Below, in pieces: positions 2,589-28,276 of a stretch of DNA of 28,306 nt (positions are counted from its first letter, which is position 1; every line of letters begins with the position of its first letter). The notes below the pieces were generated by a model, which made no database searches, was not told the origin of the DNA, and saw only the letters and a list, made by a program, of their open reading frames with translations. The stretch is taken from the NCBI GenBank assembly GCA_037444445.1, contig JBBIMK010000026.1, positions 1-28,306 on the forward strand. Reading direction: 5' to 3'. Position numbers and translations under genes: made by a program. This stretch comes from a bacterium. GTDB lineage: Bacteria > UBP7 > UBA6624 > JBBIMK01.

Positions 2589-3464
2589 ATGAATGGAAAA
2601 AGAGGGAGCGGTCTTTCGCAGGGTAGGAGTGTAGCTCTTGCGCTGCTTTGTTCCACTCTTCTTTTTACTTGCCGGAAGCCGTCCGCCAGTTCCACGGTTG
2701 AACAGTCAGGCGGTGCTTCGCCTTCCACTGGCACTGTGTATGAGGTGCAGCGAGTGATTGATGGAGATACGGTGGAGCTATCCAGTGGAACCCATCTTAG
2801 ATACCTGGGCATCAATACGCCGGAAAAGAAGGAACCTTACTTTGAGAATGCCACCCTGTATAACCAGAAATTGGTGATGGGAAAAAGGGTGCGGGTGGAA
2901 ATGGACGTTCAGCCTTACGATTCATACGGGCGACTTCTGGGGTTTGTTTTCGTGGACCGGGTGAATATCAATGTGGAGTTAGTCCGTGCTGGAATGGCTC
3001 ATGTGATGATTATTCCACCCAATTTAAAATATGCGGAAGTCCTCCAGAAGGCGCAGGAAGAAGCCCGAATCGCCGGGCGGGGCATCTGGACGCTGTTAGA
3101 GTATCAAGCCCCTTTGAAACTCACCAGCTTCCATTATAACCCGCCAGGGGATGAAGCGGCCGACCCGAACAGGGAATACCTGCGGCTGGTGAACCTGACT
3201 GGGGAGCCTTTGAACCTTCAGGGATACATCCTGAAGGACTCCGACGGTCATTCCCTTACCTTCCCGGATCTTGAACTCTCACCCGGCTATACGCTGGTGG
3301 TGCATTCGGGGAAGGGGAAGAATCAAACTTCTCCAGAGTACCAGCAGGAAATCTACTGGCAGTCCGATGTGCCTGTCTGGAACAACGATGGGGACGAGTT
3401 GCAACTTTATGACGCAGCGGGGAAGTTGATACTCAGGCGCTCCTATCGCGGCGGGCAAAAATAG
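2589..3464 (+). CDS. Secreted thermonuclease (SNase-like) fused to a lamin-tail (LTD) domain, probable lipoprotein
   Basis: The ORF opens at GTG 2553, and ATG 2589 (MNGKRGSG...) is the more likely start. The signal sequence ends LLFTC (lipobox-like). SNase motifs are VIDGDTVEL, LRYLGINTPE, YGRLLGFVFV and VELVRAGMAHV. The C-terminal EYLRLVNLTGEPLNLQGYILKDSDGHSLTF...NNDGDELQLYDAAGKLI matches the LTD pattern. Confidence 0.8.
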   Translation: MNGKRGSGLSQGRSVALALLCSTLLFTCRKPSASSTVEQSGGASPSTGTVYEVQRVIDGDTVELSSGTHLRYLGINTPEKKEPYFENATLYNQKLVMGKRVRVEMDVQPYDSYGRLLGFVFVDRVNINVELVRAGMAHVMIIPPNLKYAEVLQKAQEEARIAGRGIWTLLEYQAPLKLTSFHYNPPGDEAADPNREYLRLVNLTGEPLNLQGYILKDSDGHSLTFPDLELSPGYTLVVHSGKGKNQTSPEYQQEIYWQSDVPVWNNDGDELQLYDAAGKLILRRSYRGGQK

Positions 3465-3586
3465 AAGGTAGAAAGCAGAAAATCAGAGTGCATTCTGGGA
3501 AAGCCCTTGAGGTATTGAGCATCGGGCTTACATTTCTACCCTTCTGCTGCACGACGCACGGCTTCTGAGTATGGGTGGAAGGGAAG

Positions 3587-3595
3587 TGGTATAAT
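3587..3595 (+). promoter_or_regulatory. Extended -10 promoter element (TGgTATAAT) for rnpB
   Basis: TG at 3587-3588 and TATAAT at 3590-3595 sit about 7 nt upstream of the predicted RNase P RNA 5' end. No good -35 was seen. Confidence 0.4.
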
Positions 3596-3601
3596 GGTAG
3601 T

Positions 3602-4006
3602 GAGGGATGGGTCGGGCGGTCGCTCCTCCGAATTATTCGGGGGGGAGGAAAGTCCGGACTCCACAGGGCAGGACGCTCCGGAAAGCGGAGCCTTCCCGGC
3701 TGAGAAGTTGGGAGGAGGGAAAGTGCCACAGAAACGATACCGCCCCGACATCCTGTCGGGGTAAGGGTGAAAAGGTGGGGTAAGAGCCCACTCCACCCGC
3801 CCGTGAGGGTGTGGTGGGGGCAAACCCCGTCCGGAGCAAGACCAAACAGGAGAGGGTGGTCCCGCCCACTCCGGTTCCCAATGGGAATCGGGGAACTCCG
3901 GGTCGGTCGCTTGACCCCTGATGGGAAAAGTATCAGGGGCAGAGGAATGACCGCCACCCCGGCTTTTGAGTCGGGGAACAGAATCCGGCTTACAGACCCA
4001 TCCTTC
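3602..4006 (+). ncRNA. rnpB: RNase P RNA, bacterial type A
   Basis: Universal blocks are present in order: GGAAAGTCCGGACTCCACAGGGCAG, AGTGCCACAGAAA, GGTAAGGGTGAAAAGGTGGGGTAAGAGCCCAC, GCAAACCCC, and ACAGAATCCGGCTTA. The P1 stem forms between 5' GAGGGATGGGTC and 3' GACCCATCCTTC, followed by a T-run. The ends are approximate to a few nt. Confidence 0.9.
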
Positions 4007-4033
4007 TTTTTATATTCACGCATCGGACTGAGA

Positions 4034-4933
4034 ATGGAAGAGACGGGACGAAAATTCCTCTTCTGGTTCGTCATTCTGGTCTTCCTTTTTATCGTGGCGC
4101 TGGTGGTGCGAGTTTCCGGGGTTTCCCACCCCTCTTCATCGGGAGCCTCCGCCTCTCGTAACCTCTTCCCCTTCCAGGAAATTATCCCCCTTTACCCCCA
4201 GCCGGCGCCCGTGATTCCAGAAGTCACCAATGAGGGCTTTGACATCCAGGTTCTGGCACCAGTGGTTTTTACCCCCCACACTGGAAATTTAGAAATCCTC
4301 CTCCGTGTCGCCGGAACCCCGCCCTATTCTCCTGTCATCGTGGTGGATGACTACCCTCTTTTTAGAGGCTTCTCGGTAACAACGGAAAGCAACAACCTCA
4401 CCCTCTCTTTTGATGAAGAAATCCAACTGGCGGATGGTATACGCACCCTCGTGATTTATCTCACCGATGGACAAAAAAGAACAGTCTCCGTTTCTATCCA
4501 GGCTCTCATTGAGAGTCCAGAAGTACGAACCTACCGAGAAACTGTTCTTCAATGGGCTCAGTCGGTGGAGCAGAAGTTTCCTGCCGATGCCAGCCTGGAC
4601 CGGGAAACCCTGAATGCTTATGTTCAGTTCCTTCTTCTGCCCATCCGTTACGGTTCCATTCCCAGAGCCTCTCTCCAGGGGGAATTGGCGAAGATTGAGA
4701 AAGCCCTGTATGACTCGCGGCCCACCTTCTGGAAAGCGGTATACGGGAAACCGTTAACCGAATTAGAAATTCATCTTGTGGCTCGGGTATTTCAGAAGAA
4801 CCTGGCACCCATCTTACTGAAAGTGGAGAAGGCATCGGGAACTTTCGTTTCCCCCTTCGTGTCCTTGAACGACCTTTCTCGGAAATCCACCCAGATTCTC
4901 GGTGGCAATCCTTATTCATCGGGGTATAGGTGA
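4034..4933 (+). CDS. Hypothetical single-pass membrane-anchored protein
   Basis: The first 89 codons of track ORF 3767..4933 lie on rnpB and are discarded. The in-frame ATG at 4034 gives MEETGRKFLFWFVILVFLFIVALVV (N-terminal TM helix). No family recognised. Confidence 0.55.
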   Translation: MEETGRKFLFWFVILVFLFIVALVVRVSGVSHPSSSGASASRNLFPFQEIIPLYPQPAPVIPEVTNEGFDIQVLAPVVFTPHTGNLEILLRVAGTPPYSPVIVVDDYPLFRGFSVTTESNNLTLSFDEEIQLADGIRTLVIYLTDGQKRTVSVSIQALIESPEVRTYRETVLQWAQSVEQKFPADASLDRETLNAYVQFLLLPIRYGSIPRASLQGELAKIEKALYDSRPTFWKAVYGKPLTELEIHLVARVFQKNLAPILLKVEKASGTFVSPFVSLNDLSRKSTQILGGNPYSSGYR

Positions 4934-15602: not shown

Positions 15603-16982
15603 ATGAGCCAGGAGTCTGATGCTTCAGAGGCGGACAAACCGCCCTCATCGGTTTCAACGGTAATTGAGCGTACCCCTTCCGCTTACTCTTATGAGAGAAG
15701 ACTTCCTTATTATGAGGGAGTTTTAGAGGAAGAGTGGAACGACTGGAAGTGGCAGTTGCGGAATGCCATCCGAAGCCTGCGACAACTGGAAAAGGTTTTC
15801 CCTTTAACTCCGGAAGAGAGGGAGCAGATTGCCCAGGTGGGGGATGTGTATCCGATATTGATTTCCCCCTACTATCTATCGTTGATAGAGGTGGACAATC
15901 CCCGGGACCCGATTCGTTTGCAGGCCATTCCATCCGTAGAGGAACTGACAGTGGGGCAGGAACTGGAGGAAGACCCCTTAGAGGAGGAGACGGATTCCCC
16001 GGTTCCCGGGCTGACCCATCGGTATCCCGACCGGGTGCTGATGGTCACCACTGATTTTTGCTCCACTTACTGTCGTCATTGCACCCGAAAGCGATTGTTT
16101 CGTGTGGATTTGCCTCGCCAGAAGTTGCCGGACATTGAGGCAATGATGGCTTACATTCGGGAGCACGAGGAAATACACGATGTCATCCTCTCGGGGGGCG
16201 ACCCCCTCACACTCTCCCTGAACAAACTGGAATACATTTTATCCAACCTGCGGAAAATTCCGCATATAGACATTATTCGTCTGGGGAGCCGGGTCCCCGT
16301 TACCCTGCCCCAGCGCCTGTTTGACAAAGAACTACTCAGTATGCTGGAGAAATATGGACCCCTCTGGTGTAACACCCACTTTAACCATCCCAATGAGGTG
16401 ACGAAAGAGGCCTCTCTGGCGGTGAAAAACCTTCTGTCGGTGGGCATACCGGTAAACAATCAAACGGTTTTATTAAAGGGCGTGAACGACGATGTGGACA
16501 CAATGCGTCAGTTATGTCGCGCCCTATTACGCATCCGGTGCCGACCCTACTATCTCTTCCACTGCGACCCGGTTCGGGGAGCGGCTCACTTCCGCACCTC
16601 CATCTGGAAAGGTATTGAAATCGTGGAAGGCTTGCGCGGGCACATCTCGGGATTGGGAGTGCCTCTATATGTGGTGGATGCCCCCGGCGGTGGCGGGAAA
16701 ATCCCCATTATGCCTAACTACATCCTCTCCGCCAATGACCAGAGCGTGATTCTGAGAAATTACGAAGGGCTGATTGTGAAATACCACCCCTTCGGCGCTC
16801 CTGCCAGAGCCTCATCCCATCCCCCCATCAACGGGAAAAAAATGGATAAAGTGGGAATTATTCGCCTTCTCCAGGGCGAAGAAGGAACCCTCTCGTCTGT
16901 GAAAAGTCCACGATTGGAGCGGAGGAAGCATGCGCGTCGGAATCGCTTACGACCTGAAGAGCGATTACCCCACGAACCCTGA
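15603..16982 (+). CDS. kamA: Lysine 2,3-aminomutase (radical SAM, PLP-dependent)
   Basis: The ATG at 15603 is preceded by GGGGGAGG; the track start at 15594 is a GTG. Motifs are WNDWKWQLRN, TDSPVPGLTHRYPDRVL, the radical-SAM CSTYCRHCTRKR, and VVDAPGGGGKIPIMPNY (PLP lysine). The whole length aligns by eye with clostridial KamA. Both Asp positions that I recall binding the lysine epsilon-amino group are retained (HCDPV, VVDAP). Confidence 0.9.
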   Translation: MSQESDASEADKPPSSVSTVIERTPSAYSYERRLPYYEGVLEEEWNDWKWQLRNAIRSLRQLEKVFPLTPEEREQIAQVGDVYPILISPYYLSLIEVDNPRDPIRLQAIPSVEELTVGQELEEDPLEEETDSPVPGLTHRYPDRVLMVTTDFCSTYCRHCTRKRLFRVDLPRQKLPDIEAMMAYIREHEEIHDVILSGGDPLTLSLNKLEYILSNLRKIPHIDIIRLGSRVPVTLPQRLFDKELLSMLEKYGPLWCNTHFNHPNEVTKEASLAVKNLLSVGIPVNNQTVLLKGVNDDVDTMRQLCRALLRIRCRPYYLFHCDPVRGAAHFRTSIWKGIEIVEGLRGHISGLGVPLYVVDAPGGGGKIPIMPNYILSANDQSVILRNYEGLIVKYHPFGAPARASSHPPINGKKMDKVGIIRLLQGEEGTLSSVKSPRLERRKHARRNRLRPEERLPHEP

Positions 16983-17916
16983 TGCTCCCCAGGACCTGTT
17001 AGAAGAATACGATTCTCCTGAAACGATTGCCGCTTTAGTAGAGGCTCTGCATTCCCTCGGTCATGAGCCTGTGCCGCTGGGCGGTGGCCCTTCTTTCCTG
17101 CAAAAAATTTTATCCACCCGAGTAGAACTGGTATTCAACCTGGCTGAAGGCAGGCAGGGCTTCCGAAGCCGTGAAGCCCATATCCCCGCCGTTCTGGAAC
17201 TTTTAGGCATCCCCTACACGGGCTCCGACCCGTTAACTCTTGCCCTGACTCTGGAGAAATCTCTGACCCTGAAAGTGGTGGCTTCCGCCGGTGTCCCTAC
17301 ACCTCACTTCACCACCGTAAATGGCGCCGACAGCCTTACCCCTCCTTTCTCTTTCCCTCTGATTGCCAAGCCCGTTCACGAAGGCTCCAGTATGGGCTTG
17401 CGCCGCCACTCCAAAATCCTGACCCCTTCTGCTTACCAGCAGGAAATTCAGCGCCTCCGCTCGGATTATCATCAACCCATCCTCGTCCAGGAATTTCTGG
17501 AAGGACCGGAATATACCATTGGCATTCTGGGCAACGGAAAGACCGCTCGGGTTCTCGGCATTATGGAAATTCATCCGAAACTCGCGCCCGTTCCTGAATT
17601 TGTTTATTCCATTGAGGTGAAGCGAAACTTCCGGGAGGAAGTGGAATATCGGGTGAATAATGACCTGCCCCGTCCCCTTCGCCAGGCCCTGGAAACTTTT
17701 GCTCTCACCGCTTACCAGGCCCTCGGATGCCGGGATGTAGCACGGATGGATTTCCGCCTTTCTTCCGATGGCACGCCCCGCTTTCTGGAAGTGAACCCCC
17801 TGCCCGGCCTCCACCCCGTCACCAGCGACCTGCCGATTATGGCTTATGCTGTGGGGTTGAGTTATCAAGACCTGATTGGGGAGATATTGCATCATGCCCG
17901 CGGTAGATATGGATAA
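16930..17916 (+). CDS. D-alanine--D-alanine ligase-like ATP-grasp ligase (substrate unknown)
   Basis: The ATG at 16930 is preceded by GGAGCGGAGGAAGC and overlaps the kamA 3' end by 53 nt. Ddl-family features are MRVGIAYDL..., LLGIPYTGSDPLTLALTLEKSLTLKV, KPVHEGSSMGL and FLEVNPLPGL. Confidence 0.85.
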   Translation: MRVGIAYDLKSDYPTNPDAPQDLLEEYDSPETIAALVEALHSLGHEPVPLGGGPSFLQKILSTRVELVFNLAEGRQGFRSREAHIPAVLELLGIPYTGSDPLTLALTLEKSLTLKVVASAGVPTPHFTTVNGADSLTPPFSFPLIAKPVHEGSSMGLRRHSKILTPSAYQQEIQRLRSDYHQPILVQEFLEGPEYTIGILGNGKTARVLGIMEIHPKLAPVPEFVYSIEVKRNFREEVEYRVNNDLPRPLRQALETFALTAYQALGCRDVARMDFRLSSDGTPRFLEVNPLPGLHPVTSDLPIMAYAVGLSYQDLIGEILHHARGRYG

Positions 17917-19078
17917 AGATAACCCAGAAGCCCCAGCCGTTAAGAACCCCGACGAGAAATCACAAAAGCCTGAAGAGAATATTACTTCTCCACGGACGAA
18001 TGTAGAAGCCGGGGCTCAGCCCCCCGCCACCGCCAGGCCCGGAAAGGGGCTCACCGTGGGTATTCTGTTTAATCTAATGCCCGATTTCAACCGGGAGGAC
18101 ATTAACTCGGTTGTAAGAGCGGTGGAACGGATAGAATCGGTATTGCTAAATCAGGGATATCAAGCCCAACGATTCCAGGCTCACGAGGGGTTACTCCCAT
18201 TCCTTCATCAACTGGAAGCCTCCCAGCCTGATGTGGTTCTCAACCTCTGTGAAGGATACAGGGACAAAACGGAGGGCGAAGTCTACATCGCTGGCATCCT
18301 GGAGATGCTGAACATCCCCTACACGGGCTCCACACCATTCACCCTCGCTCTTGCCCTGGACAAGGTTCGGGCGAAGGAAATCTTCATCGCCCGCCGCATC
18401 CCCACCCCCGCTTATGCCGTCTACGACCAGTATCGCGAAGAAATCCCTCCCCTCTCTTTCCCCTTGATTCTGAAACTTTCCAGAGAAGATGCCTCCGTGG
18501 GTATGACGAATAAAAATGTGGTCTACGATGAGGATTCCTTCTTCCTTCGGCTGAAGAAACTCCTGAAGGAGTATTCTCAGCCCATCCTGGTGGAAGAATT
18601 CATAGATGGACGGGAATTCAATGTGGCTTTCTTGAACGACGAGCCCCTGCCCATTGAAGAAATCCTGTTCAGCATAGAGCCCAAACTGCTTTGCTATAAA
18701 GCGAAATGGGAAGAAGGGTCGGTAGAAGACCGGGGAACGATTCCCGTTTGTCCGCCACGGCTTTCCGCCAGAGAACGCAGAAAAATCCTGAAACTGGCTT
18801 ACGATGCCTACTCCGCCATCGGCGTCCGCGATTATGGCAGAGTAGACCTGAGAATGGATGCCGACGGAAAACTCTATGTCTTAGAAGTGAACCCCAATCC
18901 AGACATCACCTCCGAAGGCGGTTTCGTCCAGTGCTTGAAAGCGGCAGACATTCCTTATGAAACCTTCATCCTGATGCTGGTGGATTTCGCCCTATCACGA
19001 GGGAAAACAAAGAAAAGTTACCGTAAGACCGCTTCCCAGCCCGGGACCGTGCCCTCCACCCCTGACACCCTTTCGTAG
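17894..19078 (+). CDS. Second Ddl-like ATP-grasp ligase with a low-complexity N-terminal extension
   Basis: The start is ambiguous: TTG 17876, ATG 17894 or ATG 17909 (the last forms ATGGATAA, overlapping the upstream stop). After a ~60-aa Pro/Glu/Lys-rich extension come MLNIPYTGSTPFTLALALDKVRAKE, KLSREDASVGM and VLEVNPNPDIT. It is a paralog of the preceding gene. Confidence 0.8.
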   Translation: MPAVDMDKDNPEAPAVKNPDEKSQKPEENITSPRTNVEAGAQPPATARPGKGLTVGILFNLMPDFNREDINSVVRAVERIESVLLNQGYQAQRFQAHEGLLPFLHQLEASQPDVVLNLCEGYRDKTEGEVYIAGILEMLNIPYTGSTPFTLALALDKVRAKEIFIARRIPTPAYAVYDQYREEIPPLSFPLILKLSREDASVGMTNKNVVYDEDSFFLRLKKLLKEYSQPILVEEFIDGREFNVAFLNDEPLPIEEILFSIEPKLLCYKAKWEEGSVEDRGTIPVCPPRLSARERRKILKLAYDAYSAIGVRDYGRVDLRMDADGKLYVLEVNPNPDITSEGGFVQCLKAADIPYETFILMLVDFALSRGKTKKSYRKTASQPGTVPSTPDTLS

Positions 19079-19097: not shown

Positions 19098-19118
19098 TAA
19101 AAAACAACAAACCTACAA

Positions 19119-19140
19119 TTTGGGGGTCAGACCCCAAAAG
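19119..19140. repeat. Palindromic repeat, copy A (TTTGGGGGTCAGACCCCAAAAG)
   Basis: Member of the TTTTGGGG-N5-CCCCAAAA family. It lies 3 nt downstream of the stop of the 19143..19949 gene. Confidence 0.7.
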
Positions 19141-19142
19141 TC

Positions 19143-19949: not shown

Positions 19950-19957
19950 ATAATGTC

Positions 19958-19984
19958 ACCTTTTGGGGTCAGACCCCAAAATCT
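19958..19984. repeat. Palindromic repeat, copy B (ACCTTTTGGGGTCAGACCCCAAAATCT)
   Basis: Exact 27-nt duplicate of copy C, lying 43 nt away. The core is a perfect 10+1+10 palindrome. Confidence 0.8.
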
Positions 19985-19991
19985 CAGTTAT

Positions 19992-20195
19992 TTATCTTCC
20001 ACCTTTTGGGGTCAGACCCCAAAATCTTTTCCAATACCGAGCTCTTGACTTGACTAACCAGTACCGAAGAAGTTGGCGCGGCCCATCAGGGTTAGCATCG
20101 TGGGTGGATTGCGAACCCGAGAAAGCAGGTGCACCGAACACCAATAGGAAAACCAGTTCGCTCATAAATAAAGTATGCTTCCGCAACATCATCAT
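19992..20195 (-). pseudogene. Possible remnant of a secreted-protein gene, with only the signal peptide left and the 3' end running into repeat C
   Basis: 67-aa ORF. MMMLRKHTLFMSELVFLLVFGAPAFSGS looks like a Sec signal peptide. Only ~38 residues follow, and the last ones (RFWGLTPKGGR) are encoded by the palindromic repeat itself. Confidence 0.25.
20001..20027. repeat. Palindromic repeat, copy C
   Basis: Identical to copy B. The 16-nt spacer between them is CAGTTATTTATCTTCC. Confidence 0.8.
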
Positions 20196-20289: not shown

Positions 20290-20320
20290 CACCGTTTGGT
20301 GCCTGACCCCAAAAGGGGTG
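20290..20320. repeat. Palindromic repeat, copy D (degenerate left arm: CACCGTTTGGTGCCTGACCCCAAAAGGGGTG)
   Basis: Shares ~28 nt with copy G (CACCGTTTGGTGCCTGACCC[C]AAAAGGG). The right arm GACCCCAAAA matches the family core. Confidence 0.65.
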
Positions 20321-20340
20321 ATTTTACCGCACCCTCCTTC

Positions 20341-20422
20341 CTTTTTGGCAAGCCCTTCCATCTTCTTCTCTCCCCTCATCTTCCCTATTGCCCTCCGCTC
20401 CCCTTTTCCATCTTATCGGTCG
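20341..20422. repeat. CT-rich (purine-rich on the minus strand) intergenic repeat, copy X
   Basis: Contains GCAAGCCCTTCCAT (20348-20361) followed by CT-rich sequence with CCCTCAT, TCCCT and CCTC blocks. It is alignable with 28210..28276 and lies immediately 3' of a minus-strand gene stop. Confidence 0.5.
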
Positions 20423-21658
20423 TCAGGGGATTCGTATGGGGTAGCCGAGTGCGAACTCATCTATGCCCGGCTTGCCGTTAGAATGAGACTGGATAAAATA
20501 TCCTGAAAACTCTATTCCGTCTCCCGTCAGTGAAGCCAGCACCTGTCCGGGCTTCATTTTCTTCTTTGCTTCCACTGCTTTTGAACCCGATAAGAAAGTG
20601 GGGCTGGCTAAACGGTCCCACAGAAGTGGCCGAGGATTTACAGGGGCTATACGCTCAAACCATTCCTGTACAGAAATACCTGATGGAGGCCTGTCTAAGT
20701 TGGTATAAATATTCCAGGGCAGGGTGGCTGCCTCGGAGAGAAGACGGAACATTGCATCTGTAATGTGGTCTTCCTCCAGCAAATAACTGCCGGGCTTCCC
20801 CTTGCCCGCCACATATATGGATATGCGGAATTCATTTTGAGACCCCGGAAACCAGATGAGAGCAAGTTTTTCTCTTTCCTTCTTCCAATCTACCATCAGC
20901 ACAGGGTTTTTCTGATATGTTGCCGGGAGCTCCCACAGATTCGCACGAGTTTGTTCTACTTCTTCCCATGTTTCGGGGAGACGCTGTGTTATATTGAAAA
21001 AAGTAGAAATGCCTTGCAGAACTGTCAGGAATAATTGGTCTATCTCGCCCAGTCTTTTATTTGGAACCCACTCCCCGTAGCCTGTATAATGAAATGCGGA
21101 AGCCTTTCCGTTGGAGCAGACCAAGATGAAAGACCATCCGTTAGGAAGCCCCCAGGAAGCTGCCCGCCCGGATGGCAAGGATAGGGAAACTTCCTTCAAA
21201 GGATACTGAACTTTTAGATAAGGAAAATCAGGCTCCCGAGAGAATCGCCAGTAGCCCAGGTTCCTGGCAAACACCGCCACAGAATCCAACCATCCATACA
21301 TCTTCAGGATATTTTCCTGCTCTTCTGAGAAGGCTTCAATGAATCGGGCTGTTTTTCCGACTGGTTTGTAGATAACGGGCTGACCTGTTTTACGGGCTTC
21401 TTGACCCACTTCTAACATCTCCTTCTTCCACCGCTTCATTTCTCGTTGCATGCGGAAGAGCAATGACATCGCTTCCTTTACATCATCAGGTGGATTAAGG
21501 TAGATAGAAAAAGCAGATTCAAAAGTTACCGGACAGCGTTGAATATAAGAACACCCCTCTTGTAGGGCAAAGACGCAACAAGTGAGGAATGAAATGAAGA
21601 GTGTAACCTTAGTAAATCCAGTCGCCCGTGCCGTCCTCAGCTCCTTCTCCCCACACAT
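20423..21658 (-). CDS. Hypothetical secreted protein, divergent member of the pseudopilin-motif paralog family
   Basis: The track ORF starts at 21682; ATG 21658 gives MCGEKELRTARATGFTKVTLFISFLTCCVFAL (signal-like). Either start overlaps the upstream gene by 50 or 74 nt, and no ATG, GTG or TTG lies downstream of that gene's stop before the hydrophobic segment. Family-like modules are FFNITQRLPETWEEVEQ...QKNPVLMV and ATLPWNIYTNL...APVNPRPLLW. Confidence 0.6.
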   Translation of the reverse strand: MCGEKELRTARATGFTKVTLFISFLTCCVFALQEGCSYIQRCPVTFESAFSIYLNPPDDVKEAMSLLFRMQREMKRWKKEMLEVGQEARKTGQPVIYKPVGKTARFIEAFSEEQENILKMYGWLDSVAVFARNLGYWRFSREPDFPYLKVQYPLKEVSLSLPSGRAASWGLPNGWSFILVCSNGKASAFHYTGYGEWVPNKRLGEIDQLFLTVLQGISTFFNITQRLPETWEEVEQTRANLWELPATYQKNPVLMVDWKKEREKLALIWFPGSQNEFRISIYVAGKGKPGSYLLEEDHITDAMFRLLSEAATLPWNIYTNLDRPPSGISVQEWFERIAPVNPRPLLWDRLASPTFLSGSKAVEAKKKMKPGQVLASLTGDGIEFSGYFIQSHSNGKPGIDEFALGYPIRIP

Positions 21659-22505
21659 AGAACTCGTGAGCCTGGGTTCCATCTGGTTCTATCCAGTAAT
21701 TATAACTCACATCACCCGGGTGAGGGGTCGCCCATCCGTCATCCATAGGAACTTCCTGGATGAAGCGGCTCTGGAAGGGATTCCACATCTTCTTCAGCAC
21801 AGGGAATCTACGAAGCAACTCAGTGTAGGTGGGAGGTAGAGACCCCATATATTCGTCCTCAAGATTGCTATCGACACGATTGGGGTATATAGATTGAATA
21901 TAGAGAAAGTCCAGTATCCACCCGCACATCCAGGAGCGCTGGACGGTTTCCGGTGCATCAGGCGGATATTTCGGATATGGCTTCTCCTGCTCCTGTTGAT
22001 GATAGATTGATAAGTCAGAACCTGGATAACTGCGAGTATGAAACTGTTTTTCGCCATTGTGAACAACGGCTATTTCCACTGTAAGGTCTTTGGTTTCCGG
22101 ATTATAGGTCCATCGTAGATTCCCGGGAGTTGGATCTGATTCCTCCTGGACCGGCTGTCCTGTATAAGGATTAACTAAATCCTGAGACCGCACACAGGCA
22201 TAGATGGACTGCCCCAGTTGAGAATAAGTTGAGGGATATTGGAAACTGAAAAAAGCCATGGCTGTTACCTCGTCCATAATGTAATCCAGGGTCTGGATAG
22301 CACGAATGTATTTACACCATTCATCAGGGTCCCATCCTTCTGGTGGCGTGCTACAAAACAACCCACCAAACAGAACCGGATCCTCCGGCGGGTCACCTGT
22401 AAGTCCAGCACCACCCCCTCCTTCCAGGCCTACGCCGTTCAACAGAACGCCCAACGCAACCACCAACAAGCCTGTCATCAGGCTTCTTATCCATTTTCTT
22501 TTCAT
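21609..22505 (-). CDS. Hypothetical secreted protein, pseudopilin-motif paralog
   Basis: The ATG at 22505 is preceded by GGAAAGGAGGGATAAGGAA. The signal peptide is MKRKWIRSLMTGLLVVALGVLL. Module 1 is FFSFQYPSTYSQL...LVNPYTGQPVQEESDPTPGNL. Module 2 is GSLPPTYTELLRRF...MWNPFQSRFI. Confidence 0.7.
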   Translation of the reverse strand: MKRKWIRSLMTGLLVVALGVLLNGVGLEGGGGAGLTGDPPEDPVLFGGLFCSTPPEGWDPDEWCKYIRAIQTLDYIMDEVTAMAFFSFQYPSTYSQLGQSIYACVRSQDLVNPYTGQPVQEESDPTPGNLRWTYNPETKDLTVEIAVVHNGEKQFHTRSYPGSDLSIYHQQEQEKPYPKYPPDAPETVQRSWMCGWILDFLYIQSIYPNRVDSNLEDEYMGSLPPTYTELLRRFPVLKKMWNPFQSRFIQEVPMDDGWATPHPGDVSYNYWIEPDGTQAHEFYVWGEGAEDGTGDWIY

Positions 22506-22535: not shown

Positions 22536-22587
22536 CACCATTTGGTGCCACTATCTTATAGTGGCTTGAACTTTTGGGGGCAGACCC
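22536..22587. repeat. Composite intergenic repeat E: CACCATTTGGTGCC + CCACTATCTTATAGTGG palindrome + CTTTTGGGGGCAGACCC
   Basis: Three adjacent palindromic pieces lie upstream of the 21609..22505 gene. The minus-strand reading GGGTCTGCCCCCAAAAGTTCAA matches copy F on the plus strand, so E is inverted relative to F. Confidence 0.6.
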
Positions 22588-22643
22588 TGGAAGCCCGGAT
22601 GGTAAGGAGAGATAATAAAGTTGAATGTTCATTCTTTTAATCT

Positions 22644-23390
22644 CTAACTGCCTTTTTGAATGGTAGCCTGAATGGTCTGCCGCAATGCTTTTGCTGTGCC
22701 CAGAGGGTATATTGCCACCAGTCTATCCCCTTTGCCAATATAGCGATATAAAACCAGTTCTTTCCAGTTTGCCACATATTTTGGGACAGGAGATTTTACC
22801 TTAAAATCCTTCAATGTGCCCCAGGTGAATAGTTCTTTAATGGGTTTTCCATCCACCGGCGAGACCGGATTTAACTCTAAGGGGTCACCCCATTGCTTCG
22901 CCAGCTCCTCGGGGGTCTCAGGAAATTTGCCTGTGAGCAAAACATATCCTTGAAATGCTGCCCCCAGATTATTCGCCAGCGCCAGAGAGTATCTATCTTC
23001 CCTGTTTTCTTCCGTAGTGGGCGGCTTGAAGGTGTCATTTTTCAAGGTGGTGGTCTGAGAACTGTCCGAAATCCCTGGCAAAGTCAAATGAAGCAACCCC
23101 GGTTTCTCCTTCACAAAAAAATAATCGCCTGAAGATGGATTTTCCTTGCAGAGCATGGGTTTGCCGGTGAACGGGTTCCGGGGATGCCGAAAATACAGAG
23201 GTGAAGTGGTATACTCGGGGCAAGTCTCAGGATAGCGCCCGTTATACACACCCCAGAACTCCAGGGAAGTCAGGAGATACATCCTTTCACCCAGCAGGCG
23301 CATCTGCTCCGGTGAGAGTTTCTCTCGTTGAACCCCTGTCAGAGCGAAAGCTAAACCCGCGGCAATTAAAAGCCACATCCCCTTTTTCAT
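22644..23390 (-). CDS. Hypothetical secreted protein, pseudopilin-motif paralog (clearest GspG-like motif)
   Basis: The ATG at 23390 is preceded by GAAGGAGGGATGCAGA. The N-terminus is MKKGMWLLIAAGLAFALTG. Module 1 is SLEFWGVYNGRYPETCPEY...HPRNPFTGKPMLCKENPSSGDYFFV. Module 2 is AFQGYVLLTGKFPETPEELAKQW...LNPVSPVDGKPI. Confidence 0.75.
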   Translation of the reverse strand: MKKGMWLLIAAGLAFALTGVQREKLSPEQMRLLGERMYLLTSLEFWGVYNGRYPETCPEYTTSPLYFRHPRNPFTGKPMLCKENPSSGDYFFVKEKPGLLHLTLPGISDSSQTTTLKNDTFKPPTTEENREDRYSLALANNLGAAFQGYVLLTGKFPETPEELAKQWGDPLELNPVSPVDGKPIKELFTWGTLKDFKVKSPVPKYVANWKELVLYRYIGKGDRLVAIYPLGTAKALRQTIQATIQKGS

Positions 23391-23413: not shown

Positions 23414-23827
23414 TCAATTGATTGAACAATCTCCAGTAGCACAGTGAACCAGGTTAAGTGCGGTATCCATAGCCCTGTAGGCGTCATTGTAACAGTCGCA
23501 ATGTGTGGTATTAAACGACATGATTGCACCTATTCTTAAATTTTGACATGTTCCTTTATATCCGGCATACTCACAGCAGGGCACCTCGCATTCCGAATCA
23601 CACTCACCACATTGAGTGCATGCTACCATTAGTATCATCCTTGCCGTACGGGTATTCGTGAGAGTTCCCTCGCAATACCCCCCGCCCGCACAAGGAAAAT
23701 AAAAAGGCGTGGTCCACGTTACAGGGTCTGTAGACTCTGTAGTGCAACAGGCTGCTTCAGCAGTCGCTGCCATCAGCCCCGAAATCACCACCATCATCAC
23801 TACCATCATCATAACTCCCTTTTTCAT
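23414..23827 (-). CDS. Cys-rich secreted protein 1 (137 aa; 15 Cys in the 112-aa mature part)
   Basis: I shorten the 249-aa track ORF to the in-frame ATG at 23827, giving MKKGVMMMVVMMVVISGLMAATAEA as a canonical signal peptide. My reasons: the paralogous cassette at 26151..26247 begins only ~45 nt upstream of this ATG, and the upstream part of the ORF is partly encoded by a palindromic repeat. The mature region is rich in CxxC and CC. Confidence 0.65.
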   Translation of the reverse strand: MKKGVMMMVVMMVVISGLMAATAEAACCTTESTDPVTWTTPFYFPCAGGGYCEGTLTNTRTARMILMVACTQCGECDSECEVPCCEYAGYKGTCQNLRIGAIMSFNTTHCDCYNDAYRAMDTALNLVHCATGDCSIN

Positions 23828-23870
23828 CTTCTGCAACCCCCCCTTCTCTTTTCTTTTGAGGGTCATCCCC
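23774..23870 (-). repeat. Shared 5'UTR + signal-peptide cassette, copy 1
   Basis: ~97 nt that aligns with 26151..26247 with about 4-5 substitutions and 2 single-base indels by eye. Similarity fades at the AEA signal-peptidase site. Confidence 0.8.
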
Positions 23871-23881
23871 ATTTGCCCCTC

Positions 23882-23910
23882 CATATAATATATATCCTCA
23901 GAAGTTGCAA
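23882..23910 (-). promoter_or_regulatory. Candidate promoter for Cys-rich gene 1
   Basis: On the minus strand, TTGCAA (23910-23905), a 17-nt spacer, then TATATG (23887-23882), about 55 nt upstream of the ATG. Weaker than the copy-2 promoter. Confidence 0.3.
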
Positions 23911-24134
23911 AATTTACCAAAACGCCTCTTCTATTATCGTTGTCTTCGCATGTTTTGCATATTAACTTACCCCGATTCTTTTTGAAGCCATTTTTAAGGT
24001 GTGCCTGGAAAACTTTTTTCTCTCGGGGTGGAAGATTTTCCAGCAGGGCAGTCAGTTTCTGCAGTGCCTCTTTTGCCTCCTTTTTCGTCTCCTCCTCGCA
24101 AAGTTTTTCCAGGACATCCTCCTGCCTGCTGGGA

Positions 24135-24158
24135 CTTTTGGGGTCTGCCCCCCAAAAG
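24135..24158. repeat. Palindromic repeat, copy F (CTTTTGGGGTCTGCCCCCCAAAAG)
   Basis: 9-bp arms CTTTTGGGG/CCCCAAAAG with a 6-nt centre, between the 24200..25003 gene stop and the Cys-rich gene 1 promoter region. Confidence 0.7.
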
Positions 24159-24199
24159 TTCAAAAATGGGAAATCAATCTTAGAGAATGGAACGGTTAC

Positions 24200-25003
24200 T
24201 TACGGTAAACGGTTGAGTAAGTTGTCCGGCTTCTGCTTCTCTGCTTTAGGAGGTAGAATATAGTGAGCATGGCAAGGCATCATTTTATCGGCTGGGTTAT
24301 AAGATACTTTATAAATTGCCTTACCTTTGGGAAAGTGGAGCGAGAAAAACACACGCCTATCGGATTGAGCCCAAAGTTTCAGCCTTTTATTTTCCCAGAG
24401 TTCCAGCGGATTTTTCCCTTCCAGTGGGTCTTTCATCATTGTATAGGGTTCTTCTAAAAACTTGAGAAATTCCTCTGGATGGCGTAGCCCTTCTCTACAA
24501 TATGCTCTCATCCACTGACGCATCAAAAGTTGTCCATAACCCACTAACTTCATCTCCTCTTCATCATACCCTGCTTTCAGAGCACGGGCAAAGGGTGAGA
24601 CGGGTGAAGGGTTTCCTTTTCCCCACGGGATGTCCAGTGGATGGTCACCGAGGGAGGAGATTTTCTTCCCGTTAGCACTCCACAGCGTTAATTCAGTGAT
24701 TTTCTCGCCATCAGGAGATAATTGCATGCAGTAGTCACCTGGGGAAGGAGAATCACATACGTTTTTGATAGGTTGACCAGTCAGTGGATTCACGGGCTCC
24801 ATATAAAGGTAGCCTGCTCGGGATATTTCTTCCAGACTTGTGGGTAACTTCCCAAACCGCTCCATATAAATAAATACGGTAGCCTGATAATAATAACCCT
24901 CCCACTTCTCTAACGAGACCGGCTGAGATGTGGCAAGCGTCCCTATCCAGAGAATCAACACATAAATGTTAAAGACTGAAAATCGCGATATTGGCCCCGC
25001 CAT
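24200..25003 (-). CDS. Hypothetical secreted/membrane-anchored protein, pseudopilin-motif paralog
   Basis: 267 aa. The start lies 11 nt after the upstream gene's stop, which suggests coupling. It has a hydrophobic N-terminus (FSVFNIYVLILWIGTLATS). Module 1 is VFIYMERFGKLPTSLEEISRAGYL...PVNPLTGQPIKNVCDSPSPGDYCMQL. Module 2 is AYCREGLRHPEEFLKFL...KDPLEGKNPLELW. Confidence 0.7.
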   Translation of the reverse strand: MAGPISRFSVFNIYVLILWIGTLATSQPVSLEKWEGYYYQATVFIYMERFGKLPTSLEEISRAGYLYMEPVNPLTGQPIKNVCDSPSPGDYCMQLSPDGEKITELTLWSANGKKISSLGDHPLDIPWGKGNPSPVSPFARALKAGYDEEEMKLVGYGQLLMRQWMRAYCREGLRHPEEFLKFLEEPYTMMKDPLEGKNPLELWENKRLKLWAQSDRRVFFSLHFPKGKAIYKVSYNPADKMMPCHAHYILPPKAEKQKPDNLLNRLP

Positions 25004-25014
25004 GTTTTAGATGT

Positions 25015-25764
25015 TCAAGGTGCTCGAAAAAGCACAGGATGAGTTTCGGAGTAAATAAATGAACCATCTTGGATGGTAAAGGTATATCGCCTGCCACCGG
25101 GGAAATCCGGGTCGTTCAGTGGAATAACTTCATTTAACATCGTGGTTTTTGAGACAAGTGGAGCAAATTCAGGGGGAATGTAGGGGCCTAAATCGATCCA
25201 GTTTCCTGGATAATAGTTTCTATCCAACCGGATAAATCGCTCCATAATTGTGGTTTCTGCGATGGTGGCAGAATACATAGTATTCACAAAGGCTACATCT
25301 CTACGCTGTCCTATATCGCTCCATTGGTTTAAGTGCAAGCCCCCTGCATCCGCTTCCACCATATTGGTGTTAATCTTTCTCTCATAATATTTCCATAGAG
25401 TGGGCCCAGACCCTTCATCCACATCCACATAAAAAGATAGAGTAAAAGATGAAGGAAGATTATTCGTAAGAGTATAATGACCCGAAGTAGGAGTCGGTGT
25501 TTCGTGGATTGGAGTATTGTCACAGGGGTTCATCAATAAAGCGGGTAGATAACCCTGGTCATAAAGAGCTTGCGTGGATGCAGGCAAGGAGTTATTGTCA
25601 TAGTAGTAGAGAATGTAAGAATGAGAGATGGATACGGCTTTACCAAGCCAGTTCTTGAATTCTAACGTGTCCTTGATGAGCATATCTCCGCCTTCCTGCC
25701 ACGCCTGAGCCCATCCAGGCAGTAAAATCACCATAAATACCCAAAGATACAATGCTTTTCTCAT
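25015..25764 (-). CDS. Hypothetical secreted protein, pseudopilin-motif paralog
   Basis: The ATG at 25764 is preceded by AAGGAGGCTGAAGAAA. The signal peptide MRKALYLWVFMVILLPGWAQA has an AQA cleavage site. Module 1 is ILYYYDNNSLPASTQALYDQGYLPALLMNPCDNTPIHETPTPTSGHYTL. Module 2 is ERFIRLDRNYYPGNWIDL... Confidence 0.75.
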   Translation of the reverse strand: MRKALYLWVFMVILLPGWAQAWQEGGDMLIKDTLEFKNWLGKAVSISHSYILYYYDNNSLPASTQALYDQGYLPALLMNPCDNTPIHETPTPTSGHYTLTNNLPSSFTLSFYVDVDEGSGPTLWKYYERKINTNMVEADAGGLHLNQWSDIGQRRDVAFVNTMYSATIAETTIMERFIRLDRNYYPGNWIDLGPYIPPEFAPLVSKTTMLNEVIPLNDPDFPGGRRYTFTIQDGSFIYSETHPVLFRAP

Positions 25765-25796
25765 TTTCTTCAGCCTCCTTATATTTTTATTAATTT

Positions 25797-26189
25797 TCAA
25801 GGGTCTTTCCGACACTCATCCCACACATTATCCCCGTCTGAGCACTGGAAACACCTTTGTCCTTCCGGGCAGCCACACTCATTATTCGGATCATAATTGC
25901 ATTTTTTCCCTCTACCGAGAGGAGCGAAAATTGGACAAAAAGAGTTCTGACCTGTAAGACCCAGCCCGCCAGTGGTAGATCCAGTTCCTGTTCCATCTGC
26001 AGAAGAACTCAACGGAAGAAACACGATGCCCTCAGCATTCTGAATTATGGAAATCACGTCGCCATCCCAAATGTCTCGACTAAGACTAACCCACTGATTT
26101 TCGCCATCACACTTACAAACTGAGGGTTTTGCCTCCGCCGAAGAAGCCACCAGCCCCGAAATCACCACCGCCATCACTACCATCATCAT
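25797..26189 (-). CDS. Cys-rich secreted protein 2 (130 aa from the ATGATGATG start; 9 Cys in the mature part)
   Basis: MMMVVMAVVISGLVASSAEA is followed by a Gly/Thr-rich linker and the C-terminal CNYDPNNECGCPEGQRCFQCSDGD. The upstream ATG at 26205, equivalent to MKKG in copy 1, is out of frame because the A-run is 6 here versus 5 in copy 1. GGGAG just upstream of ATGATGATG could serve as the RBS. Confidence 0.6.
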   Translation of the reverse strand: MMMVVMAVVISGLVASSAEAKPSVCKCDGENQWVSLSRDIWDGDVISIIQNAEGIVFLPLSSSADGTGTGSTTGGLGLTGQNSFCPIFAPLGRGKKCNYDPNNECGCPEGQRCFQCSDGDNVWDECRKDP

Positions 26190-26247
26190 AACTCCCTTTT
26201 TTCATTTTCTGCAACCCCCCCATCTTTTTCTTTTGAGGGTCATCCCC
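26151..26247 (-). repeat. Shared 5'UTR + signal-peptide cassette, copy 2
   Basis: See 23774..23870. Confidence 0.8.
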
Positions 26248-26306
26248 CCGCTCCCCTCGCAGTAAATACAAATGTCTTCGCCATTTCTTATCCCTCAGGC
26301 AATTTT

Positions 26307-26335
26307 ATATTACCACAGGCAAAAAAACTTGTCAA
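26307..26335 (-). promoter_or_regulatory. Sigma70-type promoter for Cys-rich gene 2
   Basis: On the minus strand, TTGACA (26335-26330), a 17-nt spacer, then TAATAT (26312-26307), about 100 nt upstream of the coding start. This is the best consensus match in the window. Confidence 0.5.
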
Positions 26336-26364: not shown

Positions 26365-26393
26365 CACCGTTTGGTGCCTGACCCAAAAGGGTC
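26365..26393. repeat. Palindromic repeat, copy G (CACCGTTTGGTGCCTGACCCAAAAGGGTC)
   Basis: Near-duplicate of copy D. It lies between the CPBP gene stop (26402) and the promoter at 26307..26335. Confidence 0.65.
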
Positions 26394-26401
26394 CTGAAAA
26401 G

Positions 26402-27412
26402 TTAGTGGGTTAAGAATAGAAATATAATTAACAGAGCGTTCCAGAGAAAGTGAGATGCCCATAAAGGAACCAGGTCGCGCGTTCGTGAAAATACATAAAG
26501 TCTTACCGGAGTGACCAGAATAATAATAGCGGAAAGATAGGGGTCTATCGGCACCCCTGCGTAATAATCGGCGTGGAAAATCGCCCAAACCACGCCCGGA
26601 AGAAGGTAAGGCAAAAAACAGGGTCGAAGCCACTCCTTCAGGTGAACGAACAGGAAAATCACGAGGATTTCTTCCTGAAAAGTGTCAAAGAGAAGGGAGA
26701 CGAATAAATAAAAATAACTCATGTCTATGGAAATTTCAAGGGGCTTTTCAGGTAGTCGCAAAATGTAAACCCAGATAACTCCCAGAATGAGCATCTGGAC
26801 ATATCCTATACCTAATAGCACGAGCGTCCACTTGACCCTTTCTCTGAAACGATTCCGAATGAATCCCAGAGCCTCTACCCGGTTCCACATAACCCATTGG
26901 AAGTATAGGAGGCAAAGAGCATACCAGAAGCGCTGCCCTCCGAAATCGAGGTATCTAAACAGGCGTATGTAGTCCAGTTGATTGAGCCTGCGCCTGGTAA
27001 CCAAATATAGTTCGTGCATCCAGGAGCCCCTGAAGTGTGGGAAATTGCGTAACAAAATGTCCCGCCCAATGTAACTGAGGAGGGGCTTTAAGAGAGGGAA
27101 AATCAACAGGGCTCCGGTTAGATATTTGCCCCAATCTCTCTTCGGTATTTTCAGATGCTTAAATCCCTTCCAGAACACGAGAAAAAAGGCTATAAAGGGA
27201 AGAATGTAGACAAGGCCGCGGTTAACAAAGCCCACACTATAAAGCCATTCATAGCCGTATTTGCACGAATTGAAATCGAAGAACTGGATAACCCAGGAAG
27301 GGAAATAACGGCAGGGAATGGGAATAGGAGGTAAACCTTGAAGCAGTGCCTCATTTACTAATAAAAAGTAAGCAATAACCAGTAAAAGAGAAGTTTTATG
27401 CTCTACTTTCAC
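26402..27412 (-). CDS. CPBP-family (CAAX protease / bacteriocin-processing, Abi-like) intramembrane protease with a long N-terminal polytopic extension
   Basis: 336 aa with a GTG start; highly hydrophobic. The C-terminal third carries FQEEILVIF (EE motif, though the usual Arg at +5 is absent), WAIFH (aromatic-xxx-H) and SHFLWN (HxxxN). The spacings are roughly 30-40 aa, as in PF02517-type proteins. Confidence 0.7.
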   Translation of the reverse strand: MKVEHKTSLLLVIAYFLLVNEALLQGLPPIPIPCRYFPSWVIQFFDFNSCKYGYEWLYSVGFVNRGLVYILPFIAFFLVFWKGFKHLKIPKRDWGKYLTGALLIFPLLKPLLSYIGRDILLRNFPHFRGSWMHELYLVTRRRLNQLDYIRLFRYLDFGGQRFWYALCLLYFQWVMWNRVEALGFIRNRFRERVKWTLVLLGIGYVQMLILGVIWVYILRLPEKPLEISIDMSYFYLFVSLLFDTFQEEILVIFLFVHLKEWLRPCFLPYLLPGVVWAIFHADYYAGVPIDPYLSAIIILVTPVRLYVFSRTRDLVPLWASHFLWNALLIIFLFLTH

Positions 27413-27419
27413 ATATTCT

Positions 27420-28037
27420 CTATTCTATGTCCATCCCTTCCCAGGGGCAATCCACGATGGTACCGCTGGGAAGTCCCTCGGATGTAACAGTCTCACAGTG
27501 ATAGTCATCCAATTCGTTGATGATGCCATCACTGTTTTTATCTTTAATGAGTCCGGCATAGTCCCAGCCAACTCCCGAACAAGAATACTGGTTACTGTTC
27601 TCCTGCCATATTCCACCTCCTGCAATGCAGGAGGTGCGTAGGTTAGCAACTGTGATGTCAAGCGGACAGGGAATTCTTGGATTTTCAAGCCCGGGATTTT
27701 CTGGTCCTTCGGTACAAATCACCTCATCATCACCTGTCTCATTCTCATAGGGTGGTTGATCCCATTTCCCGTCTTTGCCTTTAGGTTGGAATTTGTTGTC
27801 ACCATCATCCGTTAATTGAACATATACTATGTACGGGCAGTGAAGATCGGGGTAGCACGGTTATTCACATGTGTAGTGAGATTTACCAGTACCTGGTGGA
27901 TGAAAGTCCCCCCAGTTAGCCTCACACAATGCCTGAAACGCGTCGCGAATCTTATCAAACCTTCTCTTTTCGCGAAGGGTTCCCCATAGATGACTAAGTT
28001 CACAGGCCGTCATGAGAAATACCATCGCAAGCACCAC
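27420..28037 (-). pseudogene. Cys-rich lipoprotein 3, split by one in-frame TAA (27861-27863)
   Basis: The same reading frame runs from ...RRLKQRITLVVLAMVFLMTAC (lipobox-like LMTAC) through ...GKSHYTCE, the TAA, then PCYPDLHCPYIVYVQLTDDGDNKF... into track ORF 27420..27722. There are 47 open codons between the TAA and the GTG used by the track. No ATG precedes the basic n-region; candidate starts are GTG 28037/28034 and ATG 28025. An EF-hand/dockerin-like loop DKNSDGIINELD is present. Confidence 0.45.
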
Positions 28038-28209
28038 AAGGGTAATGCGTTGCTTCAGCCGCCTGGGGTTCCGAAGATGTGGAATGAACCGCCACTCTCA
28101 CTATCTTCCACCAGAACCTTCTTCACCGGAAGTTACCAGTAAGAAGGAAAATTTGTTTTTGTGAGATTTTTCATCTCACTTTCCGCCCCCTATTTTGAAT
28201 GATTTTTTT

Positions 28210-28276
28210 CTTTTTTGCAAGCCCTTCCATTTTTCCTCTTCCCTTTTCCCTCATTCCCTTGCTCCCTCATCGGGGT
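28210..28276. repeat. CT-rich intergenic repeat, copy Y
   Basis: GCAAGCCCTTCCAT (28217-28230) plus a CT-rich tail, alignable with 20341..20422. It is followed by what may be the stop (TAG, 28277-28279) of a minus-strand gene that runs off the window. Confidence 0.5.

Follow-up and report, generated by a model that had tools for sequence, protein, structure and literature searches.

Two adjacent genes for unrelated cysteine-rich secreted proteins share a near-identical 5' module, probably through recombination confined to the leader

In bacterial paralogues such as the rRNA operons and the tuf genes, gene conversion leaves segments that are more alike within a genome than orthologous segments are between genomes. 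A conserved leader ahead of dissimilar products is known from other settings: in conotoxin superfamilies and double-glycine bacteriocins no part is better conserved across species than the signal, and diversifying selection acts on the mature part. The clustered vsp and vlp genes of Mycoplasma carry a near-identical 5' non-coding region and signal peptide ahead of divergent mature regions, with homopolymer tracts near the start, and encode phase-variable lipoproteins with internal tandem repeats, governed by site-specific inversion or poly(A) promoter switches. In functional terms the closest described case is the erp (OspE/F-related) family of Borrelia burgdorferi, in which one promoter, operator and leader (the upstream homology box) is joined by recombination to many unrelated mature lipoproteins (PMC10016077; PMC7002432). 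The locus described here, which is not a member of the erp family and for which no sequence homology to erp was detected, consists of two genes, A (23414..23827, minus strand) and B (25797..26189, minus strand), on contig JBBIMK010000026.1 (assembly GCA_037444445.1) of an uncultured hot-spring bacterium, together with the 5' module that they have in common. The window referred to below is the whole of this contig, 28,306 nucleotides (nt) long.

Alignment of the reverse complements of 23774-23870 and 26151-26247 gave 4 substitutions and 2 single-base indels over 98 columns, in agreement with the near-identical blocks of about 97 nt that a first-pass annotation, made from the letters of the window, had picked out. 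The core of the module, more than 90% identical over about 102 nt, occupies 23769-23870 (copy A) and 26146-26247 (copy B), both on the minus strand and both recovered by a repeat finder, by alignment and by probes, and weaker but recognisable similarity, traced with the repeat finder and MAFFT, reaches from about 23753 to 23881 and from about 26130 to 26258. At both edges the identity drops from above 90% to background within about 15 nt, so that the tract ends sharply between unrelated flanks; at the upstream edge there is only a weak extension (GAGGGG), and at the downstream edge the identity fades across the last 5-6 codons ahead of the AEA cleavage motif. The collapse of similarity had previously been placed at AEA itself, beyond which the mature parts are unrelated. 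Two core probes of 19-24 nt, with up to 3 mismatches allowed, each matched only copies A and B in the window (0.01-0.02 matches expected by chance). Copy B, whose content is the same as that of copy A, begins with a purine-rich untranslated stretch (GGGGATGACCCTCAAAAGAAAA-AGATGGGGGGGTTGCAGAAA), continues with ATGAAAAAAGGGAG and ends with the signal-peptide coding sequence up to GGGCTGGTGGC.

What follows the module is altogether different in the two genes. Gene A is predicted to encode 137 amino acids (aa) from the ATG at 23827, with the signal peptide MKKGVMMMVVMMVVISGLMAATAEA and a mature part of 112 aa containing 15 Cys; gene B is predicted to encode 128-130 aa (130 from the first in-frame ATG), with a mature part of 110 aa containing 9 Cys. 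These Cys counts are those given earlier, and the accompanying claim that the mature parts are unrelated is likewise borne out, since no similarity between them was detected (best BLASTP E = 2). Both the number and the spacing of the Cys residues differ, there being no common cysteine framework, and neither protein has a significant match in Pfam, NCBIfam or PDB sequence searches. An AlphaFold2 model of mature A had a predicted local distance difference test score (pLDDT) of 40 and was unusable, and a fold search with Foldseek gave no meaningful output.

By inspection the signal of gene A (MKKG, then VMMMVVMMVVISGLMAA, then TAEA) has a charged n-region, a hydrophobic h-region and AxA at -3/-1, and the leader reads as an ordinary Sec-type signal for signal peptidase I (SPase I) with an AxA motif, AEA being the probable site of cleavage. 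In gene B the h-region and AEA are present and the charged n-region has been lost through a frame shift, leaving the signal peptide (MM)MVVMAVVISGLVASSAEA with an uncharged n-region. The run of A directly after the upstream ATG is A6 in B against A5 in A, and a TGA stop then stands in the B frame; the ATG homologous to the MKKG start of A (26203..26205, minus strand) is thereby out of frame and opens only an overlapping open reading frame (ORF) of 30 codons, which limits the start of B to the ATG triplet 26189/26186/26183 (MMMVV...). The true start of A is also uncertain, because in both genes an ATG triplet (in A at 23812-23804, offering alternative starts) lies 2-8 nt behind a GGGAG Shine-Dalgarno-like site, and elsewhere in the island gene starts are preceded by GGAGG at 7-9 nt. 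The coding sequence of the h-region itself (23775-23812 and 26152-26189, minus strand) is a trinucleotide-like (RTG)n run, (ATG)3 GTA GTG (ATG)2 (GTG)2, which makes the signal peptide unusually rich in Met (7 Met in the 25 residues of A) and could be prone to slippage.

The evolutionary behaviour of the module becomes apparent from a comparison of two genomes' worth of module copies, in which all relatives are contigs only 1-4 kb in length. A search of 5.8 billion protein clusters gave a single homologue of gene A, P0001, which sits on the 1.9-kb contig L001 from a metagenome of the Chocolate Pots hot spring in Yellowstone (IMG 3300010938; PMC6137239) and is followed there by an orthologue of the 248-aa gene that stands behind A in the window. 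The mature part of P0001 is 79% identical to that of A at the DNA level, with every Cys kept and a ratio of non-synonymous to synonymous substitution rates (dN/dS) of 0.14, and is thus under purifying selection; its leader, MKIARLGMVVAGLMVIAGLMASPVLA, differs from that of A, with 67.5% DNA identity. L001 has the same kind of repeat as the window, its positions 40-236 and 1478-1672 being 90% identical over about 197 nt of upstream region and signal peptide ahead of unrelated downstream proteins. Within genomes the signal-peptide coding DNA is 85% (winA-winB, the leaders of A and B) and 87% (L001a-L001b) identical, against about 68% for every pair across genomes, the orthologous pair winA-L001a included; the leaders therefore cluster according to genome, not according to gene. 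In keeping with this, copies A and B are collinear, and indels of at least 20 nt are needed to align them with any of the relatives' copies.

Gene B similarly has one homologue (P0002) among the 5.8 billion clusters, a near-identical strain copy on contig L002 (SRR11582170). Between L002 and the window, differences fall at 7 of 71 positions in the leader, at 3 of 333 in the mature part (Fisher p = 3e-4 for leader against mature part) and at 3 of 646 downstream, mature B being more than 99% identical between the strains. On three further contigs, L095, L096 and L097, the module's upstream part stands ahead of an orthologue of the 298-aa gene of the window; it ends there at ATGAAAATA, and the gene behind it has a Shine-Dalgarno site and signal peptide of its own. 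As the 298-aa gene of the window has no module, the boundaries of the module and the order of the units differ between genomes, as recombination predicts. Altogether, homologous modules precede at least four units across two lineages.

We consider it probable that the module evolves in concert, that is, that its copies recombine with one another and the leader is converted or replaced, the mature proteins staying distinct and conserved genes. On this reading A and B would each stand first in one of two neighbouring transcription units of the same orientation, within a chromosomal island specific to the lineage. Each unit would comprise a small Cys-rich secreted protein and one or two exported proteins of 250-300 aa that belong to an uncharacterised family, and its 5' end would be one homologous module that combines a stretch of regulatory or untranslated DNA with a translation-initiation region and a Sec signal peptide. 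Non-reciprocal homologous recombination within the genome, by gene conversion or leader replacement, would hold the module copies nearly identical; the tract in the window would measure about 100-130 nt and end a few codons ahead of the signal-peptidase site, so that the unrelated mature parts would remain untouched. In consequence, one kind of 5' region would drive the expression of unrelated proteins, and their export would follow a common route. Three marks of concerted evolution were found: paralogous leaders within a genome are more alike than orthologous leaders between genomes, the tract has sharp ends between unrelated flanks, and differences between near-identical strains (L002 against window B) are in excess inside the tract. 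The mechanism would then be gene conversion instead of one capture event, and the module may drive co-regulation of the units. The first-pass annotation had offered a choice between recombination or gene conversion acting on the leader, which is supported by the genome-wise clustering of leaders and by the concentration of the L002 differences, and a swapping of mature domains as cassettes, which stands only for whole units, the gene order around the modules being different between genomes, and was not seen as domain exchange within a gene.

Several points count against this account. The comparison is confined to two genomes' worth of copies, and the relatives are the short contigs mentioned above; L001b is not the orthologue of B, so that the four-sequence test is no clean two-gene, two-species design; and L001 and L097 are not proven to come from the same organism. 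The alignment of window-type with L001-type untranslated sequence is ambiguous, purine repeats making two registers possible, and a promoter scan of the window detected no sigma-70-like promoter for gene A. Finally, scans of genomes and metagenomes found no further window-type copies and returned chance matches only; for want of such copies, repeated conversion cannot be distinguished from a single recent replacement of the leader. Among GTDB genomes a degenerate 24-mer fitting all five leader versions had 91 matches, mostly in Pseudomonas and similar genera; among the matches listed (80 of 91) none had two in one locus, and the two plausible-looking matches in metagenome-assembled genomes that were examined (L040, L049) proved to be ordinary membrane-protein genes. 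A stricter 32-mer gave one chance match among metagenome contigs, a weak negative because the collection holds no relevant sample (L001 should match).

How do other explanations fare? Had the 5' end of one unit been put before the other gene in one recent event, with no ongoing conversion and no functional reason, one would expect just two close copies in the window, as are found, and the divergence of about 10% would fit one event and subsequent drift; the rearrangement of units between genomes also speaks for such a capture. Yet the same pattern arose independently in the genome of the relative with a different version of the leader, homologous modules stand ahead of those four or more units in two lineages, and the leader of B is a hotspot of difference between near-identical strains, which suggests repeated exchange, so that we regard a single capture as rather unlikely. 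Similarity kept purely by selection, acting on a regulator-binding site and an optimal signal peptide with no recombination at all, would account for a module that is homologous across lineages, lies ahead of several units and in the relatives contains a sigma-70-like promoter. But selection on a signal peptide neither preserves synonymous positions nor yields genome-specific versions on non-orthologous genes, the untranslated part tolerates indels, and identity at synonymous sites was observed to be higher within genomes than between orthologues, all of which makes selection alone a highly improbable cause. Equally improbable is an assembly artefact, whether through a chimeric join or through duplication of sequence within the metagenome-assembled contig, a concern raised at the outset as assembly collapse or duplication: the contig is a 28.3-kb piece of an NCBI assembly, repeats can mislead assemblers, and the A5/A6 homopolymer difference could be a sequencing error, but collapsed or duplicated reads would not differ at about 10% of positions, as the two copies do, the junction from leader through mature B to the next gene recurs in the independent assembly that contains L002, and the architecture recurs in independent Joint Genome Institute (JGI) assemblies.

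The reading put forward in the first-pass annotation was that of a diversifying family of secreted toxins or bacteriocins, in which, as in conotoxins or class II bacteriocins, a conserved leader precedes a hypervariable Cys-rich mature region. Small, Cys-rich, secreted products with a leader in common are what such a family would show, and directly upstream of the B unit lies a gene for a CPBP/Rce1-like intramembrane protease (26402..27412, minus strand; PF02517, E = 3.6e-6). Genes for CPBP/Rce1-like proteases are often found near bacteriocin loci; this one is the sole feature of the window reminiscent of such loci, and it does not define them. Against this, the low dN/dS of mature A with its Cys pattern kept and the near-invariance of mature B between strains indicate conservation in place of hypervariability, and A and B have neither a common cysteine framework nor detectable homology. 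Nor was there a double-glycine leader in place of the ordinary Sec signal, a C39/ABC (ATP-binding cassette) exporter or a bacteriocin family match, Peptidase_C39 and ABC transporter models having no match among the 20 window ORFs scanned. Between genomes, moreover, conservation is lower in the leader than in the mature part, which inverts the pattern of toxin superfamilies. A diversifying toxin family is accordingly very unlikely here, and the mature proteins of A and B appear, from their sequences, to be conserved orphans under purifying selection.

Returning to the module and to its probable homogenisation by recombination, we may ask what its untranslated part does. The stretch upstream of the signal peptide is not protein-coding, because two compensating 1-nt indels separate the A and B copies, and frame-breaking indels between copies are found in both genomes (the window and L001). 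A structured cis-regulatory RNA (riboswitch, thermometer or leader) was considered and rejected: the five copies fold no better than shuffled sequence (z-scores -0.61 to +0.77), and an Rfam scan of the window gave RNase P as its sole match and none in the module. With no signal of coding, folding or Rfam membership, conservation would lie at the level of the DNA, the promoter or the initiation region, or else would reflect hitch-hiking in the tract. A shared 19-nt deletion in both window copies was considered as a derived character and is not relied on, two alignment registers being possible.

Promoter predictions differ among the copies. The B unit has a strong sigma-70-like promoter at 26307..26335 (minus strand; TTGACA, a 17-nt spacer and a TG-extended TAATAT, 10/12 matches), which makes the label of a 5' untranslated region (5'UTR), earlier given to about 45 nt of both blocks, plausible for B; for A the label is unverified and the 5'UTR putative only. 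All three module copies of the relatives have a sigma-70-like promoter of another make, with TTGACA or TTGAAA, an 18-nt spacer and a TG-extended TAGAAT or TAAAAT (10-11/12 matches), whose -10 element overlaps the annotated ATG, a type that the same scan did not detect in the window copies. More distant relatives of the upstream part of the module occur elsewhere in the window, at 28207..28233 (minus strand; ATGGAAGGGCTTGCAAAAAAG, element AAAATGGAAGGGCTTGCAAAAAAGAAA), upstream of Cys-rich lipoprotein-like ORFs and the protease gene, and, as found by repeat comparison, at 20338..20364 (minus strand; ATGGAAGGGCTTGCCAAAAAG, element AAGATGGAAGGGCTTGCCAAAAAGGAA), upstream of another unit. These two 27-nt elements share 89% identity, and both resemble the promoter-like part of the relatives' modules; the motif ATGGAAGGGC is present in both and also ahead of gene A (23875-23884). 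In the window as a whole ATGGARGGGC is found three times, always on the minus strand and upstream of units, where 0.25 occurrences would be expected. The module is thus best described as a shared regulatory and initiation region of the island units, and the A and B copies as its most recently homogenised pair.

Public gene calls have been misled by the module. That of B (P0006) starts at the third ATG, and that of A (P0080) is a fusion of 249 aa to an open frame lying upstream of and in frame with A (23864..24163, minus strand; 112 codons), with a TTG start inside a palindrome; the fusion is not conserved. A coding upstream ORF or N-terminal extension of A was rejected as the module copies are mutually frame-shifted and the orthologue of A has in-frame stops upstream. 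The frame, which has weak matches to Sigma70_r4_2 and zf-HC2, most probably represents the remains of a sigma-70 region-4-like gene together with the module and not a part of A. In L097 an intact 160-aa helix-turn-helix (HTH) protein with weak similarity to sigma-70 region 4 is encoded directly upstream of the module, and 23864-24163 may be a truncated relic of such an HTH gene; the pairwise homology was not significant (E about 1), the assignment resting on the weak Sigma70_r4_2 matches. The HTH gene itself (L097 320-802) has a (CT)11 run at its 5' end beside the module (L097 335-356), possibly a slipped-strand switch or an assembly problem.

The two units lie in a region, from about 19.1 kb to 28.0 kb, in which every gene is on the minus strand. 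Unit B runs from the promoter at 26335-26307 through B to genes for exported proteins of 249 aa (25015..25764) and 267 aa (24200..25003), and unit A, next in tandem, consists of A and a gene for an exported protein of 248 aa (22644..23390), the one whose orthologue stands behind the A orthologue in L001. Beyond unit A lie a gene for an exported paralogue of 298 aa (21609-22505, minus strand) and a 419-aa gene, and then a 268-aa gene. Distant paralogy (17-28% identity) links the 248-, 249-, 267- and 298-aa proteins, all of which have signal peptides and the motif NPxTGxP...PxxGxY. A full HMMER search placed this family in 73 representative clusters among 1.84 billion proteins, most members having two tandem motif copies (RxPxS..EL..SPY...NPYTGxP....PSxGD), and no Pfam or NCBIfam model matches it. 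Similarity to GspG pseudopilins was sub-threshold (PDB profile E = 0.045-0.2), the T2SSG profile was matched by 1 of 43 family members (E = 0.013), and the prepilin leader motif (G|FTLIE) was not found at the N-termini of the partner proteins; a pseudopilin identity, still sub-threshold with a 43-sequence profile, was not adopted. An AlphaFold2 model of the 248-aa partner (pLDDT 46) was unusable and the fold search gave no meaningful result.

Unit boundaries in the island are marked by a palindrome, TTTTGGGGTCAGACCCCAAAA, which lies between the B and A units at 24132..24159 (TTTTGGGG..CCCCAAAA) and in six other places (19115-19142, 19957-19984, 20000-20027, 20290-20317, 22568-22595 and 26365-26392). 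All seven copies are intergenic, at the 3' ends of minus-strand units, with a predicted 8-bp stem and 5-nt loop and no U-tail on either strand; they could be repetitive extragenic palindromic (REP)-like elements or unconventional terminators. Genes for RNase P RNA, a MutL-like protein and a subtilase are among the ordinary genes carried by this contig, which is chromosomal, and the window had no match in plasmid and phage databases. The RNase P RNA gene, of bacterial class A (3604-4008, plus strand; 251 bits), overlaps the program-listed ORFs 3433-4074 and 3767-4933, which are for this reason doubtful at least in part. At 16930-19078 (plus strand) a lysine-2,3-aminomutase-like radical S-adenosylmethionine (SAM) gene is followed by a pair of neighbouring ATP-grasp genes that are D-Ala-D-Ala-ligase-like; together these may form a small modification or peptide-ligation cluster at the island border. 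At the other end, 27420-28037 (minus strand), two same-frame ORFs are split by a single in-frame TAA (27861-27863), which may be a nonsense mutation, a pseudogene or a sequencing error; the first (27861-28037) has a lipoprotein-like N-terminus, MVLAMVFLMTAC, the second (27420-27722) has 8 Cys, and joined they would give a third Cys-rich exported protein of about 205 aa.

A bolder version of the argument would see the module as a portable expression-and-export cassette at every unit, with recombination not only homogenising leaders but also inserting, deleting and reordering units, and with the G7 and A5/A6 tracts at the start switching B's signal peptide between a charged and an uncharged form through slipped-strand mispairing. 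Its basis is that the A unit of the window lies between the sigma-r4-like relic plus module and the 298-aa gene, and that L097 joins the intact HTH gene plus module directly to the 298-aa orthologue. If true, it would mean a modular and possibly phase-variable secretome in an uncultured thermophile, but we think it improbable in this full form.

Homogenisation of the leader alone, as preferred here, makes the locus a clean example, on a small scale, of gene conversion, or of replacement of the leader, confined to the regulatory and signal-peptide part of unrelated genes, in a free-living uncultured hot-spring bacterium and not in a pathogen with antigenic variation. The kind of recombination is already known, and the locus opens no new mechanism; what it teaches is that a shared leader with a different mature part does not permit an inference of diversifying selection without a comparison of orthologues. 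The island also points to unexplored exported proteins, the orphan Cys-rich proteins and the rare two-repeat NPxTGxP family.

Set beside the systems with which we began, the locus has something of each. It resembles conotoxins and double-glycine bacteriocins in having a common leader on dissimilar Cys-rich peptides, and differs from them in that the mature parts are conserved and the leader changes between genomes, with no GG site and no dedicated exporter. With the Mycoplasma vsp and vlp genes it shares the conservation of the 5' end, but A and B are conserved, non-repetitive proteins, and the switches of vsp and vlp have not been demonstrated here. As in the conversion of rRNA operons and tuf genes, the tracts are short and their ends sharp; unlike there, conversion would be limited to the leader and regulatory region of genes that have no other homology. 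The likeness to Borrelia erp lies in a common promoter/operator and leader on unrelated mature proteins. The erp leaders, however, are those of lipoproteins (SPase II) with a lipobox Cys, whereas the leader here is of the Sec/SPase I type with AEA and no lipobox; and the erp genes occupy allelic sites on cp32 prophage plasmids of a host-associated spirochete, whereas A and B, the only two close copies, head tandem chromosomal units of an uncultured hot-spring bacterium.

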